Of a stretch of DNA of 64,000 nucleotides, positions 45,846 through 55,011 are shown in pieces. The notes under the pieces were generated by a model that made no database searches, had not been told where the DNA came from, and worked only from the letters and a program-made list of their open reading frames with translations. The number at the start of each line of letters is the position of its first letter. Position 1 is the stretch's first letter. A program made the position numbers and the translations under genes. The DNA is from an uncultured Gemmatimonadales bacterium (lineage in GTDB: Bacteria; Gemmatimonadota; Gemmatimonadetes; Gemmatimonadales; Gemmatimonadaceae). Where the stretch lies: the NCBI GenBank assembly GCA_963793305.1, contig CAWBZV010000012.1:224001-288000 (forward strand), read 5' to 3'.

Positions 45846-47123
45846 GTGGCCACCGACATCACTCGTCGTCATTTTCTGGAGGCTGCCGCAATGACTTTCG
45901 CCGCTGCACAGCTCGGCACCGCGGGCACCGCGCTCGCCAATGCCCCCACCGACATCCGTCCGTTTCATGTTCACTTTTCTGACGAGGCGCTGGCCGATCT
46001 CCGCCGGCGCGTCGCGGCCGTTCGATGGCCGGACAAGGAAACGGTCGCCAACCAGACGCAAGGCGTGCAGCTCGCGACGATCCAAGCCCTCGCGGAGTAT
46101 TGGTCAACCAAGCACGACTGGCGTAAGGTCGAGGCGCGGCTCAATGCGCTGCCGATGTTCATCACCGAGATCGACGGCCTCGACATTCACTTCATTCACG
46201 TGAAGTCGAAGCACGAGAATGCGATGCCGTTGATCGTTACGCACGGCTGGCCGGGCTCGGTGATCGAGCAGCTCAAGATCATCGATCCGTTGACGAATCC
46301 CGAGGCCAACGGCGGGACCGCATCCGACGCGTTCCATCTGGTGATTCCATCGTTGCCGGGCTACGGATTTTCCGCCAAGCCGACTGGTACCGGCTGGGAC
46401 ACCACCCGTATCGCGAAGGCGTGGGACGTCCTAATGAAACGCCTCGGCTACACGCAATACCTGGCGGCGGGCGGCGATTGGGGTGCGGCCGTTACGCAAA
46501 TTATGGGAGCACTGGCGCCTCAGGGCCTGCTGGGCATTCACACCAACATGCCGGGCACTCTGCCGCCCGAGGTGTCCAAGGCACTGGCGATCAATGCCCC
46601 GGCGCCCGCCGGTCTCGCGCCCGATGAGCAAAAGGCGTTCGACGAGCTCAAGGATTTTTATGGCCACCACGTCGGGTACGCGGGCGAGATGGCAAACCGC
46701 CCGCAGACGTTGGTTGCCCTCGCCGATTCGCCCATCGGACTGGCGTCCTGGATTCTCGATCACGATGGCGCCAGCTTGGCGCTCATCTCGCGCGCGTTTG
46801 CGGGACAGAAAGAAGGCCTATCGCGCGACAATGTGCTCGACAACATCACGCTCTACTGGTTGACGAACACGGGCGTCTCGTCGGCTCGCCTCTACTGGGA
46901 GAACAAGCTGCCCTTCTTCGACATCTACGGCGTCACCGTGCCGGCGGCCATCAGCGTGTTCCCCGACGAACTCTATGAAGCCCCGCGCAGCTGGACCGAG
47001 AAGGCGTACCCCAAGCTGCTCCGCTACAACCGGCTGGGCGTCGGTGGCCACTTCGCGGCCTGGGAACAGCCGAAACTCTACGTAGACGAAATTCGCGCGG
47101 GCTTCGCATCACTGCGTAAATAA
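45846..47123 (+). CDS. Epoxide hydrolase with a Tat signal peptide
   Basis: TRRHFL; IRPF EH N-terminal domain, HGWPGS, GGDWG, GGHFAAWEQP. Confidence 0.92.
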   Translation: MATDITRRHFLEAAAMTFAAAQLGTAGTALANAPTDIRPFHVHFSDEALADLRRRVAAVRWPDKETVANQTQGVQLATIQALAEYWSTKHDWRKVEARLNALPMFITEIDGLDIHFIHVKSKHENAMPLIVTHGWPGSVIEQLKIIDPLTNPEANGGTASDAFHLVIPSLPGYGFSAKPTGTGWDTTRIAKAWDVLMKRLGYTQYLAAGGDWGAAVTQIMGALAPQGLLGIHTNMPGTLPPEVSKALAINAPAPAGLAPDEQKAFDELKDFYGHHVGYAGEMANRPQTLVALADSPIGLASWILDHDGASLALISRAFAGQKEGLSRDNVLDNITLYWLTNTGVSSARLYWENKLPFFDIYGVTVPAAISVFPDELYEAPRSWTEKAYPKLLRYNRLGVGGHFAAWEQPKLYVDEIRAGFASLRK

Positions 47124-47143
47124 TTGCCCACGAGCGGCAGACG

Positions 47144-47175
47144 GCGCCCCACGTCACTTGGTTGACGTGGGGCGC
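47144..47175. terminator. 13-bp perfect hairpin
   Basis: GCGCCCCACGTCA-N6-TGACGTGGGGCGC. Confidence 0.6.
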
Positions 47176-47177
47176 TC

Positions 47178-48102
47178 GTGTATCATGCGCGGCGCATCAT
47201 AAAATCTCTGACGATCCCGTGCGTTGCCGTGGCCCTCTCGCCGCTGGTGTGCGGCGGTGTGTTAGCTCAGAATGCCGACTCCATCGCGGCACGCATCACG
47301 GGTCGCGAATATCCCTCGATATTCGCGGCTTGGAATCTCGCGGAGAATCTGCGGCAGACCGATGGACGCACCGTTCCGCTAGCGGCCAGCGAGAGCCCCA
47401 ACGACATTCGCGCCCGGCACGATTTGTTCTTCTCGACCTACGAGCGGTTGGGGCTCAGGCTCGCGGCCGGCCGGCAATATGTCGTGCTGACGCCGGAGTT
47501 CACGGACGAGAGCATTCAGGCGGCGCTCGCCAACCGGGCGAAGCTCCTGGCGGCGAATCCCCACATGCTCATCATGACGGACCTGCATTACTTCTCCGCG
47601 AGGCACGACTATCTGCCCGCCGCCTCCCCCTGGTGGCTGCACAATGCGAAGAACACCAGGTTCGAAGGCAACAACACAGAATACAAGTCGTCGCGCCTGG
47701 ACTTCTCCAACCCTCAGTTCCAGGACAAAGTCGCGGCCTTGTGCGCGGCGCTGCTCAAGACCGGCGTATACGACGGATGCATGATGGATTGGTGGCACGA
47801 CGACGATGAGATGGGCGGCGACCGGCTGGCACACCGCGGCCGCGAACCTCTTGGGGGGGGAAAGCCACCTGCACAAGCCCGCGTTCACGGCGTTGGAGGG
47901 TTGGTGGCAACCCGACGCCAGACCATCTGCACGACTGGTATCCCTTCTGGGACAAGTCGTTGGGCCACCCCGTCGGTCCGCTCGCGACCCTCGACCACCC
48001 CGATCTCAACGGCGCGTACACGCGGCAGTTCGAAAAGGGCAAGGTGGTCTTCAACCCGACACGGTGGCGCCCGGCGACGGCGACCTGTTTCTTTCACAGT
48101 AG
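47178..48102 (+). pseudogene. Secreted glycoside-hydrolase-like protein, disrupted at the 3' end
   Basis: Signal peptide, YPSIFAAW, ARHDL, YDGCMMDWW; then three frame changes within about 230 bp (WHTAAAN / PTPDHLHDWYPFWDKSLG / GDGDLF). Confidence 0.55.
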
Positions 48103-48132
48103 CTCGACCACCCCCAACGACGGAGAAGGCGA

Positions 48133-48684
48133 ATGGATTTTCGCGGAGTAGGAGCACTCCTGGCCGCGGCCTGCATGCTCGCGCCAAGTGCGAGAGCCCA
48201 GGGTCCCGCGGTCGGCGACGCGGCACCCGATTTCTCGCTGCCGGGCGGCACGCGATACGGCGTGCTCAAAGGCCCCGTACACCTCGCCGACTATCGCGGG
48301 CAGACGGTCGTGTTAGCCTTCTTCTATCAGGCGCGGACCAAAGGCTGAACGGTCCAAATGGAGGCGTACCGTGATCAGTACGCCAAGCTGTTCCACAATG
48401 GCCGCAAAGTGACGGTCATTGGCATCAGCGTCGACCCAGACACGATGCAAGCAAATTGGGCGCACGAATCGGACTTTCCGATCGTCTTCGCCAGTGATAG
48501 TGGCAGCGTCGTCGGCAAGATGTACGGCGCCTACGATGCCCAGAACAAAGTCGACAATCGATCGCTGTTCGTCGTCGGTCCCGACGGGCGGATCGCCTAC
48601 GTGACGAAGCCGTTCAAGGTGCTGGCACCGGCATCATATACCGATCTGGCGGCGGCGATCGACAAGGTCACGCCGGCGAGTTAG
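48133..48684 (+). CDS. Selenocysteine-containing peroxiredoxin-like (BCP/PrxQ, AhpC/TSA fold) exported protein, 183 aa, Sec72
   Basis: In-frame TGA 48346-48348 joins two ORFs: VGDAAPDFSL...VVLAFFYQARTKG-U-TVQM...VIGISVD...ASD...NRSLFVVGPDG; SECIS-like hairpin directly downstream. Confidence 0.88.
48347..48393 (+). promoter_or_regulatory. Bacterial SECIS element
   Basis: Upper stem GGCGTAC (48363-69)/GTACGCC (48378-84); loop CGTGATCA starting 21 nt after UGA; lower stem GAACGGT/GCTGTTC. Confidence 0.8.
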
Positions 48685-49163
48685 AGCGCTTTCCGGATCG
48701 CGGCGTCGATGTCCTGGGTGCCGCCGACACCGGTATAGACCACCTTCCCCGTGTGGTCAATGACGACGACGTACGACGTCGCGGGAGCATCGTAGGCTCC
48801 CGCGGCGTTGCCGTCGGCGTCATAGACGACGGTGCCCGGCAGGGGGTGCACGGCGACGTGCTTTTGTACGCGCTCGAAGGACTCGTTGATCGCGACCGCG
48901 ACCGTGACGAACCGCACGCGTCCGGCATACTTCGTCTGTGCCGCGGTCAGCGCTGGCTCGAGCTCCTTGCAGTTCGGGCACCACGTTGCCCAGAACTCGA
49001 TGACCGTCGGCTCGGGGCCAACGAGATGCGAGAGATTCACCACTTTCCCATCCAGCGATCGCACGACCGCTGATGGGGGCTTCGCACCGAGCGCAATGCC
49101 GCCATCCTGTGCGTACACTGGCGCGGCGACCATGAGCGCCATGAAGATCGACTTGAGCATCAT
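48681..49163 (-). CDS. TlpA-like exported thiol-disulfide reductase
   Basis: Signal peptide ending VYA-Q; EFWATWCPNC; VVIDHTGKV; ATG overlaps the upstream TGA. Confidence 0.9.
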   Translation of the reverse strand: MMLKSIFMALMVAAPVYAQDGGIALGAKPPSAVVRSLDGKVVNLSHLVGPEPTVIEFWATWCPNCKELEPALTAAQTKYAGRVRFVTVAVAINESFERVQKHVAVHPLPGTVVYDADGNAAGAYDAPATSYVVVIDHTGKVVYTGVGGTQDIDAAIRKAL

Positions 49164-49882
49164 CAGATGAGTTGCTGCCCCATGAGAACCAGGTAGTACT
49201 CGGCTGCGCCAAGCATGATCAAGGCAAAGGCGCGCTTGACCCACGTCATCCACGCCCCGGCGCGCGGCAGACGAGCGAGGGCGCCGGTCGAGAGACCAGC
49301 GAGCACGAGAAACGTGCACATCCCGAGGGAGAATACGAACAGGTAAATGAAGCCCAGCACGGCGCTCCGGGTCGTGCCCACCCACGTCAGGACGGCCGCC
49401 ATCACGGGCGCCGAGCACGGCGCGGCGACCAACCCCGATGCCGCACCCATAATGAATGCGCCGGCCGCGGCCCCCCCGTTCCCGGCTCGTGCAGCTCGCG
49501 CGATGAGCGCCGACGGAATCGGGACGGGCATAACGTCTAACATCACCAGGGCGAACAGGATGAGGAGGTTCGCCATCGCGAAATAGGCCCAAGGGTTCGA
49601 GCTCACCGAGCCGAACAGTGTGCCCGTAAGACCAGCCAAGAGACCCAACGTGGCATACACGAGGGCGAGACCCAGGACGTAGCTCAACGTGAGCACTATG
49701 GGCCGCACCCGCGAGGCGCCGGTGTCTCCACCGACACTCTTTCCGCCGACTATCGCCGCCGTGATCGGAATCATCGGATAAATGCATGGCGTGAGGCTCG
49801 TGAGCACGCCGGCGACGAACAGGAAGGGAACCGCCGTCCACGGGTGGGACGACAGCTGAGCAGCGAGGGACGTATGGTCCAT
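49163..49882 (-). CDS. ccdA: CcdA/DsbD-beta transmembrane electron transporter
   Basis: AGVLTSLTPCIYPMIP, AAPCSAP, GAWM; about six TM segments. Confidence 0.88.
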   Translation of the reverse strand: MDHTSLAAQLSSHPWTAVPFLFVAGVLTSLTPCIYPMIPITAAIVGGKSVGGDTGASRVRPIVLTLSYVLGLALVYATLGLLAGLTGTLFGSVSSNPWAYFAMANLLILFALVMLDVMPVPIPSALIARAARAGNGGAAAGAFIMGAASGLVAAPCSAPVMAAVLTWVGTTRSAVLGFIYLFVFSLGMCTFLVLAGLSTGALARLPRAGAWMTWVKRAFALIMLGAAEYYLVLMGQQLI

Positions 49883-49971
49883 TGGGCTGTAACCTAAGCT
49901 ATCCCACGTCAAGAAGTTGTCAGGGTCCAGTGAGTTCTGGCGTCACCCCATATGGCCCAATATTATGGCGA

Positions 49972-50472
49972 ATGTTTCGCGCTCTGGCCTGGCTCATAGC
50001 GATCGTTCCCGTCGCGGTCCGCGCGCAGGACGCCTCGCTCAACCTCGCTGATCCCGATGTCGCGGCCATCGCGAAGCTCGCCGATGACTTCGCGCACGCG
50101 GTTGACGCCGGCGATGTCAATCGTATCGTGGACTTCTACAGTCCCGCGGCGATCTACTTCGCGGACGGCGAGCCGGTGATCGATCGCAACGTCGGCAAGG
50201 CGATCGCGAATCGCTGGCGCAAGACCATCGGCTCCAATCGCGCGCACATGGCGATTCGCGTCGAGGAGATCGACGTGTCCGGCGACCTTGCGTACGATCG
50301 CATCAGCTACACCGTCACGATCATGCCGAGGATCGTGAATCTCGTCCCAGGACAAACGGGAACACCGAGCCAGGTGCAGCGCATCGGACGCGCCCTCGAG
50401 ATCCTCCGCAAAGAGGACGGCGTCTGGAAGTACTACCGCGTCATGACCAACAGTTCGTCCGGCGACGAATAG
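49972..50472 (+). CDS. Secreted SnoaL/NTF2-like (DUF4440) protein
   Basis: Signal peptide; AGD..IV.FY..AI, SGDLAY, ILRKEDGVWK. Confidence 0.8.
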   Translation: MFRALAWLIAIVPVAVRAQDASLNLADPDVAAIAKLADDFAHAVDAGDVNRIVDFYSPAAIYFADGEPVIDRNVGKAIANRWRKTIGSNRAHMAIRVEEIDVSGDLAYDRISYTVTIMPRIVNLVPGQTGTPSQVQRIGRALEILRKEDGVWKYYRVMTNSSSGDE

Positions 50473-50520
50473 CGCGTCCGTCCCACAGCGATTCAGATGA
50501 TGGGTCGCATTGACCGCTCG

Positions 50521-50549
50521 TTGACACATTAGAAATTTTCTGTTATCGC
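50521..50549 (+). promoter_or_regulatory. Candidate promoter of the susC operon
   Basis: TTGACA-17 nt-TATCGC; AGAAA-T-TTTCT palindrome in the spacer. Confidence 0.45.
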
Positions 50550-50659
50550 TGCGCAACAGTACAGTACTGAGCGTAGCGCCGCCCGCGCGCATTGCCGTCG
50601 GGGGTATTTGTCGTGTCTGAAGACCGCGCTCAGTCACAATCCGAGGTGGAGCATTCGCC

Positions 50660-53638
50660 ATGCGACTGTCTCGTGCGATGGCGCTCTTGGTCTGTTCCTC
50701 CCTGATTGCCACTGCGGCGCATGCTCAGTCGCGGACGATCAGCGGAACGGTCACGGACGCCGAAAGTAGTCAGCCCCTCTCCGACGTCCAGATCGTCATC
50801 AAGGGCACGTTGCGGGGAACGCACACAAAGGACGATGGGACCTACACGTTGCCGGTGCCCGACAACGGCGCGCTGACACTGAGCTTCCGGCGCATCGGCT
50901 ACATCCAAGTGGAGAAAGCCGTCCCCGCTGGAGAGCTCAAGATGGACGTCGCGCTCGCCCGCGATGTGCTCAAGCTCGAAGAAACGATCATCACCGGACA
51001 GGCGACCAGCGAGAGCCGCCGCAACGTCGCCAACGCCATTTCTACCGTGTCGGCGGACCAGCTGACCGCCGTGCAGTCCCAGACCCTCGACCAGGCGCTC
51101 CAGGGCAAGGTCGCGGGCGCCGACATTCAGGCCAACTCCGGTGCGCCTGGCGGCGGGATGCAAGTGCGGCTGCGCGGCATCTCGTCGATCATCGGCACTT
51201 CCGATCCGCTGTTCGTGGTCGACGGCGTGATCATCAGCAACGCATCGATCCCGGCCGGCACCAATTCCATCACCAAAGCGACGTCCGGCGCCGCGGGCGG
51301 CAGCGGGATCTCCTCGAATGAGGACAATCCATCGAACCGCCTCGCGGACCTCGACCCCAACGACATCGAGAGCATCGAGGTGCTCAAGGGCGCCTCGGCC
51401 TCCGCGATCTACGGATCGAAAGCGTCGCAGGGCGTCATCCTGATCACCACGAAGCGTGGACACGCCGGCAAGCCGAAGTTCAACGCCACGCAGCGTCTGG
51501 GCTTCAGCGAGGACTCGAAGGAGCTCGGGTCGCGGACCTTCCCGACGCTGGCGGCGGCCGAATCCGCGTTCGGGGGAACCGCCGCGACGTACTACAAGCC
51601 GGGCGTCACCTACGACCACGAAGCGGAGCTGGCCGGTAACAAGCCGCTGTCCTGGCAGACCACGATGAACTTGAGCGGCGGCAACGAAGCCACAACGTAC
51701 TACACGTCCGGCATCCTGGAACACGACGGCGGCATCATCGACAACACGTATTTCGACAAGCAGTCCGTCGCCCTGAACCTCAATCAGCAAGTCGGAACGC
51801 GCATGGACTTGGGGCTGCAGACGACATTCGCTCATACAGCCGATGGACGCGGGCTCACCAACAACGACAACACGAGCACCAGCTTCTACGCGACCCTGCC
51901 GGGCGTGCCGAACTTCGTGAACTTGCAGGCGCTCCCGAACGGCAGCTACCCGAACAATCCGTTCGCGCCGAGCAACCCGCTCCAGACCGCCGCGCTGCTG
52001 CACAACGACGAGAGCATCTATCGGTTCATCGGCTCCGGCCACGGCAGCCTGCATCTGCTCAGCACCTCCAGCAACATCCTCAACCTCGTGTTCACCGGCG
52101 GCCTGGATTTCTTCCAGCAGCAGAACTCCCTCTATTCGCCGCCGGATCTGCAGTATGAGATCCTGTACGGCAATCCGGGCACGAGCGTGCTCTCGAACAC
52201 AAACAACCTGTTCACCAACGTCAACCTCAATCTCGTCCACGTTTTCACGCCGAGCGGCGGCGCGTTCCGCGCCACGACCTCGATCGGCGCGCAGGAGGAG
52301 ACACGCTATCAGAGCTTGGATCGCACGGAAGCCAAGAACTTGGCCGGCGCTCTCCAGAATATCAATCGCGGGACATTCGTGACGGTGGACGAAGAGCGGC
52401 AGAATACCGTCGACCAGGGACTCTTCGCCCAAGAGGAATTCCTGACCCTCTCGGACCGCCTGCTGCTGACCATCGGCGTGCGCGCTGACCGCAGCAGCAA
52501 CAACGCCAACACGGACCATCTCTTTTGGTACCCGAAGGGGTCGGCGTCGTATCGACTGAATGTCGGAAAGTCGTTCCTCGACGAGATCAAGTTCCGCGCG
52601 GCCATCGGCGAGTCCGGTAACGAGCCACTCTACAGCCAGAAATTCGGCGAGCTCGTCGCCGGCAACTATGTCGGCATCCCGACGTCCCAGGTGCTCGGAA
52701 CGATCGCGTCGCCCGACCTCCAGCCGGAGCAGCAGCTCGAGGTCGAGGGCGGGTTCGATGCGACGCTGTTCGGCAGCCGCGCCACTCTGAGCGTCACCGG
52801 CTACCAGAAAACCATCAACAGTCTCCTGCTGCAACGCACGCTCGCCGGCGCCACGGGCTTCCAGAGCGAGTTCTTCAACGGCGGAACCCTGCGCGACCGC
52901 GGCCTCGAGATCGAGGGGACCGCGGCGGTCCTCCAGGGTCGGAACACGCAAGTGACGTTGAACGCGAACTTCTCGAAGGATGCGAGCCTCATCACGTCAC
53001 TCCCGGTCCCGCCCTTCATTCCCGCGAACCAAGGGTTCAGTACGACCTATGGGACGGCGTACATCGAGCAAGGCCATTCCGCGTCGGAGATCGAGGGCAA
53101 CGTCGTGAAGAACGGCCAGGTCACGACCGGCGCCATCGGCGATGCGAACCCGAACTTCCGCTTGGGCTGGGGCGGGTCGGCCACCTATCACGGCCTGCAC
53201 CTGTCGGTGCTCTTCAACTGGGTCCAGGGACAGAGCATCGTCAACCTGACGGAGTTATTGTACGACTTCGGCCAGAACAGCGTAGACTACGCGACGCCGA
53301 TCACCATCGACGGCAAGCAGACGACGATGGGTCAGTATCGCATCGCGCACTGGGAGGCGGGATACGGCAACACGTACGTGCAGGATGGCTCGTTCGTGAA
53401 GCTGCGCGAGTTGACGCTGTCCTACGATCTGCCGCTGCAATGGTTCCGGTTCGCCGGGCCGGGTCTCTCCAGCGCGACCTTGAGCATCAGCGGCCGCAAC
53501 CTCGTCACGTGGACCAAGTACCCCGGCCTCGATCCCGAAGTCTCCAACTTCGGCAATCAGAACGTCGGCCGTAACGTCGATGTCGGCCCATTCCCACCGA
53601 GCCGTACGTTCTGGTTCGGCCTCAGCCTGGGGTTCTGA
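50660..53638 (+). CDS. SusC/RagA-family TonB-dependent outer membrane receptor
   Basis: ISGTVTDAE, LQGKVAG, PLFVVDGV, DIESIEVLKGASASAIYGS.A..GVILITTKRG; C-terminal Phe. Confidence 0.95.
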   Translation: MRLSRAMALLVCSSLIATAAHAQSRTISGTVTDAESSQPLSDVQIVIKGTLRGTHTKDDGTYTLPVPDNGALTLSFRRIGYIQVEKAVPAGELKMDVALARDVLKLEETIITGQATSESRRNVANAISTVSADQLTAVQSQTLDQALQGKVAGADIQANSGAPGGGMQVRLRGISSIIGTSDPLFVVDGVIISNASIPAGTNSITKATSGAAGGSGISSNEDNPSNRLADLDPNDIESIEVLKGASASAIYGSKASQGVILITTKRGHAGKPKFNATQRLGFSEDSKELGSRTFPTLAAAESAFGGTAATYYKPGVTYDHEAELAGNKPLSWQTTMNLSGGNEATTYYTSGILEHDGGIIDNTYFDKQSVALNLNQQVGTRMDLGLQTTFAHTADGRGLTNNDNTSTSFYATLPGVPNFVNLQALPNGSYPNNPFAPSNPLQTAALLHNDESIYRFIGSGHGSLHLLSTSSNILNLVFTGGLDFFQQQNSLYSPPDLQYEILYGNPGTSVLSNTNNLFTNVNLNLVHVFTPSGGAFRATTSIGAQEETRYQSLDRTEAKNLAGALQNINRGTFVTVDEERQNTVDQGLFAQEEFLTLSDRLLLTIGVRADRSSNNANTDHLFWYPKGSASYRLNVGKSFLDEIKFRAAIGESGNEPLYSQKFGELVAGNYVGIPTSQVLGTIASPDLQPEQQLEVEGGFDATLFGSRATLSVTGYQKTINSLLLQRTLAGATGFQSEFFNGGTLRDRGLEIEGTAAVLQGRNTQVTLNANFSKDASLITSLPVPPFIPANQGFSTTYGTAYIEQGHSASEIEGNVVKNGQVTTGAIGDANPNFRLGWGGSATYHGLHLSVLFNWVQGQSIVNLTELLYDFGQNSVDYATPITIDGKQTTMGQYRIAHWEAGYGNTYVQDGSFVKLRELTLSYDLPLQWFRFAGPGLSSATLSISGRNLVTWTKYPGLDPEVSNFGNQNVGRNVDVGPFPPSRTFWFGLSLGF

Positions 53639-53640
53639 CC

Positions 53641-55011
53641 ATGACTACTCGTCTACTTCGCGCCGCAGCCTCCGCAGTCCTGGGCCTCGCGGCGTCGCTC
53701 ATGGGATGCGCCAACCTGACGGTGCCCGATCTCAACAACTCGAGCATCAGCGACTTTCAATCGCATCCATCGGGCGCCGGGGCCGACGCCATCGCCGTGG
53801 GGCTCCTCCGCGGCGCGCGGGACGGCACTTGGTTCCTGATCCGGACGCTCGGTGTTTTCGGCCGCGAAGGGTATTCGCTCAACGTCGCGCAAGGAGATCT
53901 GCCGACGTACTTGGTCGGCCCCTTGAGTCCGGGCGACTTCCTCGTGTCGGGCACCTGGAATCAACAGTACGCCGATCTTCGGGCGGCCAACATTATGCTC
54001 GACGGCCTCCCGAACGTGACTGACCTCACGTCGGCGCAGAAAGAGGCGATCACCGGTTTCGCCCAGACGATGGAAGCCTTCGACCTGTCGCAGCTCGCCG
54101 CGACGCGGGACACGTTCGGCATTCCGATCACGGTCGATATCAACCCGACGGGTGCGCTCGCGCCGATCGCGACGAAGGCCCAAGTCTATCAGCATATCTA
54201 TAACCTGCTCGACTCGGCGCAGACGCACCTCCAGAATGGCGGCGGCGTCTTTTCGTTCCCGATGCCCCAAGGCTTCTCCGGGTTCAACACGCCGACCACG
54301 TTCATCCTGTTCAACCGCGCTCTGCGCGCGCGGGTCGACATCACGCTCAGCAACTACACGCAGGCGCTGACCGATCTCTCGGCATCGTTCCTGTCCACGT
54401 CCGCTCCACTGTCGCTCGGCCCGGTGTTCGAGTTTTCGACCAACGCAGGGGACGAGGTCAACCCGCTCTTCGTGCCCTTCCTGTACGCGCATCCGCGGCT
54501 CGTCAGCGAGGCGCAGCTGCGGCCAAATGACTCGTTGGATCTTCGCGTGCAGGAGAAGCTCGTCACCGTGCCCTCGTTCACGTTGGAGGGCGTCACCACC
54601 AACGTGCAGTTCACGCTCTATAACTCGAGCGCCTCGCCGATCCCCGTCATTCGCAACGAAGAGCTCATTCTGATGCGGGCCGAGGCGAACTTCGGGCTCG
54701 GAAACAAGACCACGGCGCTCTCGGACATCAACCTTATCCGCACCAGCTCGGGAGGTTTGGCCGCCCTGCCCGGCTCGTTCGCGACCGGGCCTGACAGCGC
54801 GATGCTCAATGAGATCCTCTACGAAAAACGATACTCGTTGGTCTGGGAAGGCGGTCACACCTGGCTCGACATGCGGCACTACGGGTTGCTGCAGACGCTG
54901 CCGAAGGCACAACCGACCCATCACATCTTCGAGATCATGCCGTACCCGCTCGCCGATTGCCAGGGTCGGACTCCCAAGCCGGAAGGGTGTAACTTCGTCG
55001 TCGGATATTAG
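53641..55011 (+). CDS. SusD/RagB-family lipoprotein
   Basis: Lipobox LMGC; IRNEELILMRAEA, IN.IR, EKRYSL.WEGG..WLD.R. Confidence 0.9.
   Translation: MTTRLLRAAASAVLGLAASLMGCANLTVPDLNNSSISDFQSHPSGAGADAIAVGLLRGARDGTWFLIRTLGVFGREGYSLNVAQGDLPTYLVGPLSPGDFLVSGTWNQQYADLRAANIMLDGLPNVTDLTSAQKEAITGFAQTMEAFDLSQLAATRDTFGIPITVDINPTGALAPIATKAQVYQHIYNLLDSAQTHLQNGGGVFSFPMPQGFSGFNTPTTFILFNRALRARVDITLSNYTQALTDLSASFLSTSAPLSLGPVFEFSTNAGDEVNPLFVPFLYAHPRLVSEAQLRPNDSLDLRVQEKLVTVPSFTLEGVTTNVQFTLYNSSASPIPVIRNEELILMRAEANFGLGNKTTALSDINLIRTSSGGLAALPGSFATGPDSAMLNEILYEKRYSLVWEGGHTWLDMRHYGLLQTLPKAQPTHHIFEIMPYPLADCQGRTPKPEGCNFVVGY

Follow-up and report, generated by a model that had tools for sequence, protein, structure and literature searches.

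A predicted exported selenocysteine peroxiredoxin of Gemmatimonadota, encoded across an in-frame TGA and routinely mis-annotated

Can two short open reading frames (ORFs) that lie in the same frame, parted by a TGA and three further codons, be one gene whose TGA is read as selenocysteine (Sec, U)? This question is raised by positions 48133 to 48684 of a 64,000-nucleotide stretch of DNA from an uncultured Gemmatimonadales bacterium (GenBank assembly GCA_963793305.1, contig CAWBZV010000012.1, positions 224,001 to 288,000 of the forward strand), which is the window of our analysis and to which all coordinates without a contig label refer. An earlier note, made from the letters alone, had proposed that an exported peroxiredoxin (Prx) of the BCP/PrxQ type is hidden here, with UGA at its peroxidatic site and a Sec insertion sequence (SECIS) hairpin behind it. 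It had also asked whether the genome holds selA, selB, selD and tRNA-Sec, whether relatives keep the TGA and the hairpin in alternation with Cys codons, and whether the TGA recurs in independent sequence. Our data suggest that the locus is one gene in which TGA is decoded as Sec, and that its product is a predicted exported peroxiredoxin with a single catalytic Sec (a 1-Sec peroxidase); we give this reading a probability of roughly 80%, and that the gene encodes a real selenoprotein we hold to be more probable still, and very likely.

A gene with an in-frame TGA

The 71-aa ORF (48133-48348) and the 108-aa ORF (48358-48684) are both on the forward strand and in the same frame, as had been claimed, and between them stand only the TGA (48346-48348) and the nine bases ACG GTC CAA. 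Reading the TGA as U gives a protein of 183 aa that includes ...AFFYQARTKG-U-TVQMEAYRDQY... and ...NRSLFVVGPDG..., and the Pfam family AhpC-TSA (PF00578) spans the TGA in one match (residues 27-156, profile positions 1-123 of 124, 95.2 bits against a cut-off of 26). The median ratio of nonsynonymous to synonymous substitution rates (dN/dS), taken against up to 109 orthologs, was 0.13 before the TGA (41 codons, n = 96) and 0.22 after it (60 codons, n = 109), values which are rough as dS is close to saturation and which point to purifying selection on both halves of the gene. The two ORF "fragments" are one intact gene.

Two sets of relatives were aligned at this codon: a named set, consisting of the best 80 of 404 genome matches, all of them metagenome-assembled genomes (MAGs) labelled Gemmatimonadota, Gemmatimonadales or Gemmatimonadaceae, and 30 loci fetched from an order-level sample of 61 genomes in three families. 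All 80 named loci have TGA as the codon aligned with residue 72, and at order level this codon is TGA in 27 loci, TGC in two and TGT in one, which makes 107 TGA and three Cys codons (TGC/TGT) in 110 loci; relatives thus do keep the TGA, with its hairpin, in alternation with Cys. The best matches at order level contain one TGA in 43 of the 61 genomes (E <= 4.9e-44) and are stop-free orthologs in eight (E <= 4.4e-33). In a phylum-wide sample an ortholog (E <= 1e-40) was present in 233 of 301 genomes, distributed by family as 62 of 69 in f1, 98 of 125 in f2, 2 of 3 in f3, 4 of 6 in f4, 1 of 1 in f5, 21 of 23 in f6, 44 of 47 in f7 and 0 of 26 in f8 to f12. Among the 150 phylum-sample matches listed, 137 have one TGA and 13 have none; 98 further matches lie outside these 150, and the exact position of the TGA was verified in the 110 fetched loci only. 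One unpublished genome (G012), none of whose loci was fetched, counts as one unit in the 61- and 301-genome tallies.

In one genus (loci L137-L140 of genomes G238, G319, G264 and G128) two exported peroxiredoxin genes stand in tandem, about 40-50 nt apart, one copy with TGA and the other with TGC or TGT, and both with Pro at residue 65; these may be a selenium-dependent and a selenium-independent isoenzyme pair.

The source genome, a Gemmatimonadaceae MAG of 5.72 Mb in 26 contigs that is 92% complete, holds the complete Sec machinery that the earlier note had asked for. A tRNA-Sec lies at C11:60848-60940 (65.7 bits; called SeC with anticodon TCA by ARAGORN), and selA (543 bits), selB (292 bits) and selD (374 bits, with one TGA) were likewise all found above curated cut-offs. 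Across the order-level sample selA was detected in 49 of 61 genomes, and its occurrence follows the form of the peroxiredoxin gene: 42 of the 43 genomes with the TGA form have it (41 of 42 if the unpublished genome is removed), and none of the eight with a stop-free ortholog. The peroxiredoxin is also not the only gene of the source genome with such a codon, as a formate dehydrogenase alpha subunit gene (fdhA, 1016 bits) and a second fdhA-type gene contain one TGA each, so that the selenoproteome has at least four members. The TGAs in selD and in both fdhA-type genes each have a GC-rich hairpin behind them, the loops of which start 16-18 nt downstream (CGGGU, GGUCU and GGUCU). The selD codon stands in the context ARCAG-U-ASKMGPGDL (G000:C11:59733-60940; also L019 and L001) with its hairpin 16 nt downstream, the selD gene itself lies 186 nt upstream of the tRNA-Sec gene, and the two formate-dehydrogenase-type genes are at G000:C5:1224539-1227577 and G000:C3:1272728-1273891, where the GGUCU-loop hairpins follow. 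Of 1424 open frames of at least 1500 nt in this genome, 801 terminate in TGA, 384 in TAG and 239 in TAA, and the neighbouring ccdA and SusC-like genes also end in TGA; TGA is the commonest terminator of long frames, and therefore there is no genome-wide reassignment.

Downstream of the UGA, RNAfold predicts a 7-bp stem (GGCGUAC/GUACGCC) that closes an 8-nt loop, CGUGAUCA, with the stem beginning 14 nt and the loop 21 nt after the UGA, which is the perfect hairpin that had been described. Bacterial SECIS (bSECIS) elements are defined in the literature by a loop of 3-9 nt with a G at position one or two, in many cases with G or U next to it, a stem of 4-16 bp, a spacing of 16-37 nt and a minimum free energy of -7.5 kcal/mol or lower (PMC13188914). 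The window element, with a loop of 8 nt that opens C-G-U, a stem of 7 bp, a spacing of 21 nt and -11.0 kcal/mol, lies within all of these limits. We give weight to the hairpin because of its conservation and not for its fold energy alone. Of the 27 order-level TGA loci, 26 share its exact 20-nt core, GCGTACCGTGATCAGTACGC (the remaining one has a loop change), as do 74 of the 80 named loci. Over 26 distinct rows 100% of cells are paired; the closing pair (alignment columns 18 and 39) is G-C in 13, C-G in 10 and U-A in three, and the covariation score of 0.175 compares with 0.034 +/- 0.015 in shuffles, none of 500 of which scored as high; slid registers all collapsed. In the three Cys-form loci the same YRD peptide is encoded by other synonymous codons (CGC GAC) and no stem is formed. 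All 109 Sec forms have Ala at residue 78, the GCG codon of which is part of the stem, against T, K or S in Cys forms. The tandem pairs repeat this within single genomes, with the exact core in the TGA copy and its absence from the Cys copy in four of four. The lower stem that had also been described is predicted in the window sequence and is not conserved in relatives: it is absent from their single folds and from the RNAalifold consensus, which predicts the apical stem only (consensus folding term -11.0 kcal/mol), and we rejected it as a part of the element.

The TGA itself recurs in independent sequence. A 2740-nt contig from a DNA run (X1), which may be the source sample of the genome, spans 48000-48800 with seven substitutions and a C inserted behind 48110, none of them at the TGA. 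Contigs from RNA libraries of two studies (X16, 48211-48800; X17, 48105-48462) bridge the TGA by at least 31 nt on both sides, and two more (X15, X18) include it and end 15-20 nt beyond. Among the contig differences listed none falls at 48346-48348; eight further differences lie outside that list. The RNA-library contigs often start near 48105-48128, and we draw nothing from their starts or uncovered parts.

Public annotation treats the gene in a different manner. The best 120 of 1462 database homologs comprise 92 full-length entries and 28 fragments of 107-121 aa, as expected from the earlier prediction that standard annotation would split the gene, and all 12 of the fragments inspected start with MEAYRDQY and so correspond to the ORF behind the TGA. 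Of the full-length entries, 86 have Cys72, all 86 with Pro65, and the other six (P0002, P0016, P0036, P0071, P0072 and one more) have W or L at residue 72 and Y, F, V or P at residue 65, which suggests that their TGA was translated under another code. The names met were 'peroxiredoxin Q/BCP', 'thioredoxin-dependent peroxiredoxin' and 'redoxin domain-containing protein', none of which denotes a selenoprotein. Gene callers thus treat the TGA as a true stop, which would make the locus a pseudogene or two small genes of 71 and 108 aa with an incidental hairpin, and TGA is indeed a normal stop codon of the source genome and the gene immediately upstream looks disrupted. A true stop is nevertheless very improbable in view of a TGA that keeps one exact codon throughout and is replaced by Cys codons where it is missing, purifying selection on both sides, a single Pfam domain that runs across it, a hairpin that covaries and disappears along with the TGA, and a selA that tracks the TGA form; the N-terminal piece alone would also be without the catalytic Arg. 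We see just as little chance that the TGA is read as an ordinary residue, Trp or Cys, through near-cognate reading or local recoding. Some pipelines have translated it so, as the six W or L entries among the 92 show, but the peroxidatic Cys occupies position 72 in 89 of 89 stop-free homologs, Trp is unable to do peroxidatic chemistry, TGA ends most long frames of the source genome, and the full Sec machinery is present and tracks the TGA form, with a hairpin that fits the bSECIS model.

Decoding as Sec is the reading that we prefer, and several observations weigh against it. The presence of selenium in the protein is a prediction from sequence, and the RNA-library contigs, which come from close relatives, document the presence of the sequence only and not its transcription, strand or level. 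The fold of the single hairpin beats chance only modestly (-20.8 kcal/mol, z -2.1; 3 of 200 shuffles fold equally well) and is weak when taken alone. Six of the seven stem pairs are invariant and so uninformative either way, leaving one pair that covaries, and this closing pair is unpaired in four of the 80 named loci (A-A three times, A-C once). The YRDQY peptide is kept in Cys forms too, so that nucleotide conservation is partly conservation at the protein level. One genome with the TGA form (G054, 85% complete) had no selA that we could find.

Table 1. Features of the peroxiredoxin locus and of the adjoining genes (window coordinates).
Feature	Position	Strand	Basis
Whole gene, AhpC/TSA peroxiredoxin, 183 codons, one in-frame TGA, stop TAG at 48682-48684	48133..48684	+	ORFs, read-through, Pfam
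Shine-Dalgarno-like sequence GGAGAAGG, ATG 4 nt downstream	48122..48129	+	Sequence inspection; putative function
Predicted signal peptide of the Sec (secretion) type, residues 1-22, MDFRGVGALLAAACMLAPSARA then QGP	48133..48198	+	Basic residue, hydrophobic stretch, A-x-A before Q
Tyr65 codon, at the canonical Pro of PxxxTxxC	48325..48327	+	Alignment
Thr69 codon, T-x-x-U motif	48337..48339	+	Ortholog alignment
UGA, very likely selenocysteine codon (U72), peroxidatic position	48346..48348	+	Locus alignment, contigs
bSECIS apical hairpin, stem 48363-48369 / 48378-48384, loop 48370-48377 (CGUGAUCA)	48363..48384	+	Fold and conservation
Arg143 codon, conserved catalytic Arg	48559..48561	+	Ortholog alignment
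TlpA/ResA-like exported thioredoxin, 160 aa, WCPNC, signal-peptide-like N-terminus; proposed reductant	48681..49163	-	Pfam Redoxin/Thioredoxin
CcdA-type membrane thiol-disulfide electron transporter (DsbD_TM), same strand, upstream of tlpA	49163..49912	-	PF02683, 6.3e-50

Active site, family and motif position 65

By sequence, the solved structures closest to the window protein are an archaeal BCP (2ywn, 5.6e-11) and AhpE of Mycobacterium tuberculosis (1xvw, 1.9e-10); in the alignment to both, U72 takes the place of the peroxidatic Cys and Y65 that of the PxxxTxxC Pro, so that the TGA does sit at the catalytic Cys position, and Tyr does replace the motif Pro, as first read. In 106 orthologs (the 110 fetched loci minus four without a match to the APDF regular expression) the invariant or near-invariant residues are R68, T69, G71, T73, Q75, Y79, R80, D81, W109, S121, D122 and R143; residue 69 is T in 104 and S in two, and the downstream catalytic Arg, R143, already described as intact, is present in 106 of 106. 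The mature part has no Cys besides the active-site position in any of these aligned orthologs, and the sole Cys among the 183 aa of the window protein is C14, within the N-terminal hydrophobic stretch, which agrees with the proposed 1-Sec design without a resolving Cys.

Although the protein has the domain, the Thr and the Arg of a peroxiredoxin, its earlier assignment to the BCP/PrxQ subfamily was not clearly borne out. No model in an NCBIfam scan exceeded its cut-off for the window protein, including the PrxU equivalog NF040737 (64.8 bits against 270) and the BCP/PrxQ models NF006960 (55.3 against 140) and NF053650 (43.6 against 260). A fold was modelled for a natural Cys-form relative, P0004 (67% identical to the window protein; alignment of 60 database proteins), with a mean predicted local distance difference test (pLDDT) score of 87.1 and 25 disordered N-terminal residues. 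Foldseek placed M. tuberculosis AhpE (1xxu) first for this model (E 9.4e-13, template-modelling score 0.83 by target length, 32% identity), with BCPs following within an E-value factor of about 2 and typical 2-Cys peroxiredoxins also close. By sequence and by this model the clade appears AhpE/BCP-like, the margins between AhpE and BCP being too small for a subfamily assignment. The source genome has 15 AhpC-TSA matches, and the gene in the window is the only one with an internal stop.

The residue at motif position 65 differs between most Sec forms and the Cys forms. Among 103 Sec forms it is Y in 54, F in 43, I in two, V in two, A in one and P in one, and among Cys forms it is Pro in 89 of 89 (86 database entries and three loci); the window protein, with Tyr65, is without the canonical Pro. 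Trees were built without columns 65 and 72. A FastTree phylogeny of 198 rows requires at least eight Sec/Cys changes and at least eight Pro/non-Pro changes, with Cys clades of 62, 13, 7, 2, 2, 2, 1, 1 and 1 rows scattered among Sec clades, and yields four independent pairs on supported branches, all in one direction (sign test, p 0.125). A quick IQ-TREE run (LG+G4) on 92 rows, with no more than five per pure clade, gave seven changes of each kind and five independent supported pairs, of which four to five are concordant, with no pair running the other way (p 0.0625). The coupling holds in one direction only: every Cys form has Pro, and so do some Sec forms. A perfect coupling of Sec with non-Pro was rejected on the strength of Sec forms with Pro in L039 and in the Sec copies of the tandem pairs.

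A second, canonical BCP paralog of the cytoplasmic type (about 30-34% identical) occurs in L141, L142 and L144 (genomes G009, G034 and G028) with the motif FYPKDDTPG-U-T and a different hairpin. This paralog has TGA at the peroxidatic position, together with Pro, in three of the four loci fetched and Cys in the fourth (L143), and its counterpart in the source genome (C5:949386-949766) is stop-free.

Predicted export and a candidate reductant

An exported, periplasmic protein, as earlier claimed, is predicted from the N-terminus: a custom heuristic (a basic residue, a hydrophobic 9-residue window with a Kyte-Doolittle value of 1.8 or more and, in most cases, A-x-A before Q) recognized a signal-peptide-like pattern in 100 of 110 loci. 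This is a generous figure, as the start codon was picked by the same export score, which lessens its force for our reading. Three loci look lipoprotein-like.

We propose the following sequence of events. SelB and Sec-tRNASec would bind the hairpin at 48363-48384 so that Sec is inserted at codon 72, the secretion (Sec) translocon would export the protein and the signal peptide would be cleaved after Ala22. The U72 selenolate, positioned by Thr69 and Arg143, would then attack the peroxide and be converted to a selenenic acid. An external thiol would be needed for its resolution because the mature protein has no other Cys, and the likeliest donor may be the CxxC motif of the neighbouring exported TlpA-like thioredoxin, which in turn would be re-reduced by the neighbouring CcdA with electrons from cytoplasmic thioredoxin.

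This TlpA/CcdA step stems from gene neighbourhood. In the window the prx gene (TAG, forward strand) and the tlpA-like gene (TAA, reverse strand) are convergent and their stop codons overlap at 48681-48684; there is no intergenic space for a terminator and therefore the transcripts would overlap in antisense. In the tlpA-like gene W61, C62 and C65 are invariant among 46 orthologs. Of the 76 named loci with sufficient sequence, 56 have a convergent tlpA-like gene that ends within 700 nt of the Sec codon. Both tlpA and ccdA adjoin the peroxiredoxin gene in 48 of 69, and in two more loci tlpA is farther off; at order level tlpA is adjacent in 13 of 29 loci and the pair lies within 1.5 kb in three more.

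It is also conceivable, with a probability well below that of the reading we favour and well above that of a stop or an ordinary residue, that the protein is a real exported selenoprotein for which TlpA/CcdA is not the reductant, or whose main role is not peroxide scavenging, so that another envelope thiol system would reduce it or it would serve as a redox relay, a sensor or a reductase of another oxidised substrate. Convergence, which means that prx and tlpA/ccdA are not co-transcribed, speaks for this alternative and tells against ours, as does the absence of the pair beside the gene in 20 of 76 named and 16 of 29 order-level loci, in all three Cys-form loci and in all four tandem loci. TlpA-type proteins also act in cytochrome oxidase maturation, and deletion of pprX in Caulobacter brought no rise in peroxide sensitivity (PMC3322552); the canonical active-site Pro is, moreover, absent from the window protein. 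The alternative has to contend with the invariance or near-invariance of Thr69, Sec72 and Arg143, with a prx-tlpA synteny seen in three families, even where TlpA identity falls to about 46%, and with the source genome's two further CcdA-like genes and one TlpA paralog at other sites, which could take on other tasks. Given these other copies, the adjacent pair could be dedicated to the peroxiredoxin, and for TlpA/CcdA as its reductant we judge the chances to be even, on grounds of gene order.

An epoxide hydrolase gene with a Tat-like N-terminus lies upstream (45846-47123, forward strand), and a SusC-like TonB-dependent receptor gene and a SusD-like gene lie downstream (50660-55011, forward strand); these ordinary neighbours show no evident link to the peroxiredoxin. 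The gene directly upstream of prx (47178-48151, forward strand; weak GHL15-like Pfam match) shifts frame near 47830-47900, and its nucleotide homology to the upstream gene of the closest relative (L025) ends at 47830, and the additional C of the X1 contig, behind 48110, also falls here; the gene is probably disrupted or rearranged, or affected by an assembly error. A scan of 47000-50600 for promoters and terminators returned one promoter-like and two terminator-like sites, which did not exceed shuffled sequence and none of which was usefully placed.

Comparison with known systems and significance

Peroxiredoxins with Sec are established. 'Peroxiredoxin (Prx), PF00578, TxxU' figures among the characterised prokaryotic selenoproteins of a 2026 review, with a conserved PxxxTxxU (PMC13188914), and a 2006 survey reported 12 Sec-Prx and five Cys-to-Sec events (PMC1794560) and a 2005 Sargasso survey 43 Prx with TXXU (PMC1088965). 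Our search of the literature for selenoproteins or selenocysteine in Gemmatimonadetes, for periplasmic Sec-Prx and for PrxU returned no paper on this clade, although the supplementary tables of the surveys (PMC1794560, PMC5029168) may list entries, and in the 2026 review the words Gemmatimon-, periplasm- and signal peptide do not occur (PMC13188914). With the bacterial Sec-Prx of the TxxU type, whose prototype is PrxU of Eubacterium acidaminophilum, the window protein shares the AhpC/TSA fold, T-x-x-U, the Arg, a bSECIS element immediately downstream and widespread Cys homologs, but it is no PrxU equivalog, has no second Cys, is predicted to be exported and belongs to a group in which Tyr or Phe takes the place of Pro (97 of 103 Sec forms). 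Membership of the UxxC group of Prx-like thiol:disulfide oxidoreductase selenoproteins, which are likewise thioredoxin-fold matches to PF00578, was rejected, as the motif of the window protein is T-x-x-U and its Sec is followed by no Cys.

AhpE of M. tuberculosis is a cytoplasmic Cys enzyme with the motif Pro that is reduced by the mycothiol/mycoredoxin system. AhpE (1xxu, 1xvw) and archaeal BCPs (2ywn, 3hjp) are the closest solved structures by sequence, and AhpE is also the top fold match for the model of the Cys-form relative. AhpE is likewise without a resolving Cys; it uses Cys and keeps the motif Pro, whereas the window protein has U72 and Tyr65. The closest parallel to the proposed relay is the ScsB -> TlpA -> PprX pathway of Caulobacter crescentus (Cho et al., 2012; PMC3322552), which also combines a peroxiredoxin with a signal peptide, a TlpA-type thioredoxin and a transporter of the DsbD family. 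PprX is, however, a Cys enzyme of the PrxQ type with a canonical PXXXTXXC and a resolving Cys, its transporter is ScsB and not CcdA, and the Caulobacter pathway was demonstrated experimentally, whereas the relay in the window is suggested by synteny alone (PMC3322552).

Sec-containing, exported and 1-Cys peroxiredoxins are each already known, and no new mechanism is involved. What goes beyond the routine is the 1-Sec design, the predicted export, Tyr or Phe at the motif Pro, the tlpA-ccdA neighbourhood and the match between selA and the TGA form. From the sequences compared, this appears to be a genuine phylum-wide selenoprotein gene that is routinely mis-annotated, and the finding corrects a systematic error by which it stands in public collections as fragments or as Trp/Leu mistranslations. 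A bolder idea, which we put forward as a speculation that is more likely wrong than right, is that Sec made the active-site Pro, universal in other peroxiredoxins, dispensable in an envelope selenoenzyme kept throughout the phylum ([Y/F]xxxTxxU), that Pro was regained with each return to Cys, and that the enzyme is served by a dedicated CcdA -> TlpA relay. If true, nature would have tested repeatedly how Sec rewires the active site of a thiol peroxidase, and the enzyme would be the first case of a peroxide defence in the bacterial cell envelope that depends on selenium. Apart from this idea, the finding indicates that a soil phylum which is abundant and largely aerobic uses its Sec machinery for a predicted envelope peroxidase besides SelD and FdhA, and the repeated switches between Sec and Cys and between Tyr/Phe and Pro, together with the tandem copies, offer a tractable system for studying what Sec gives a peroxiredoxin.

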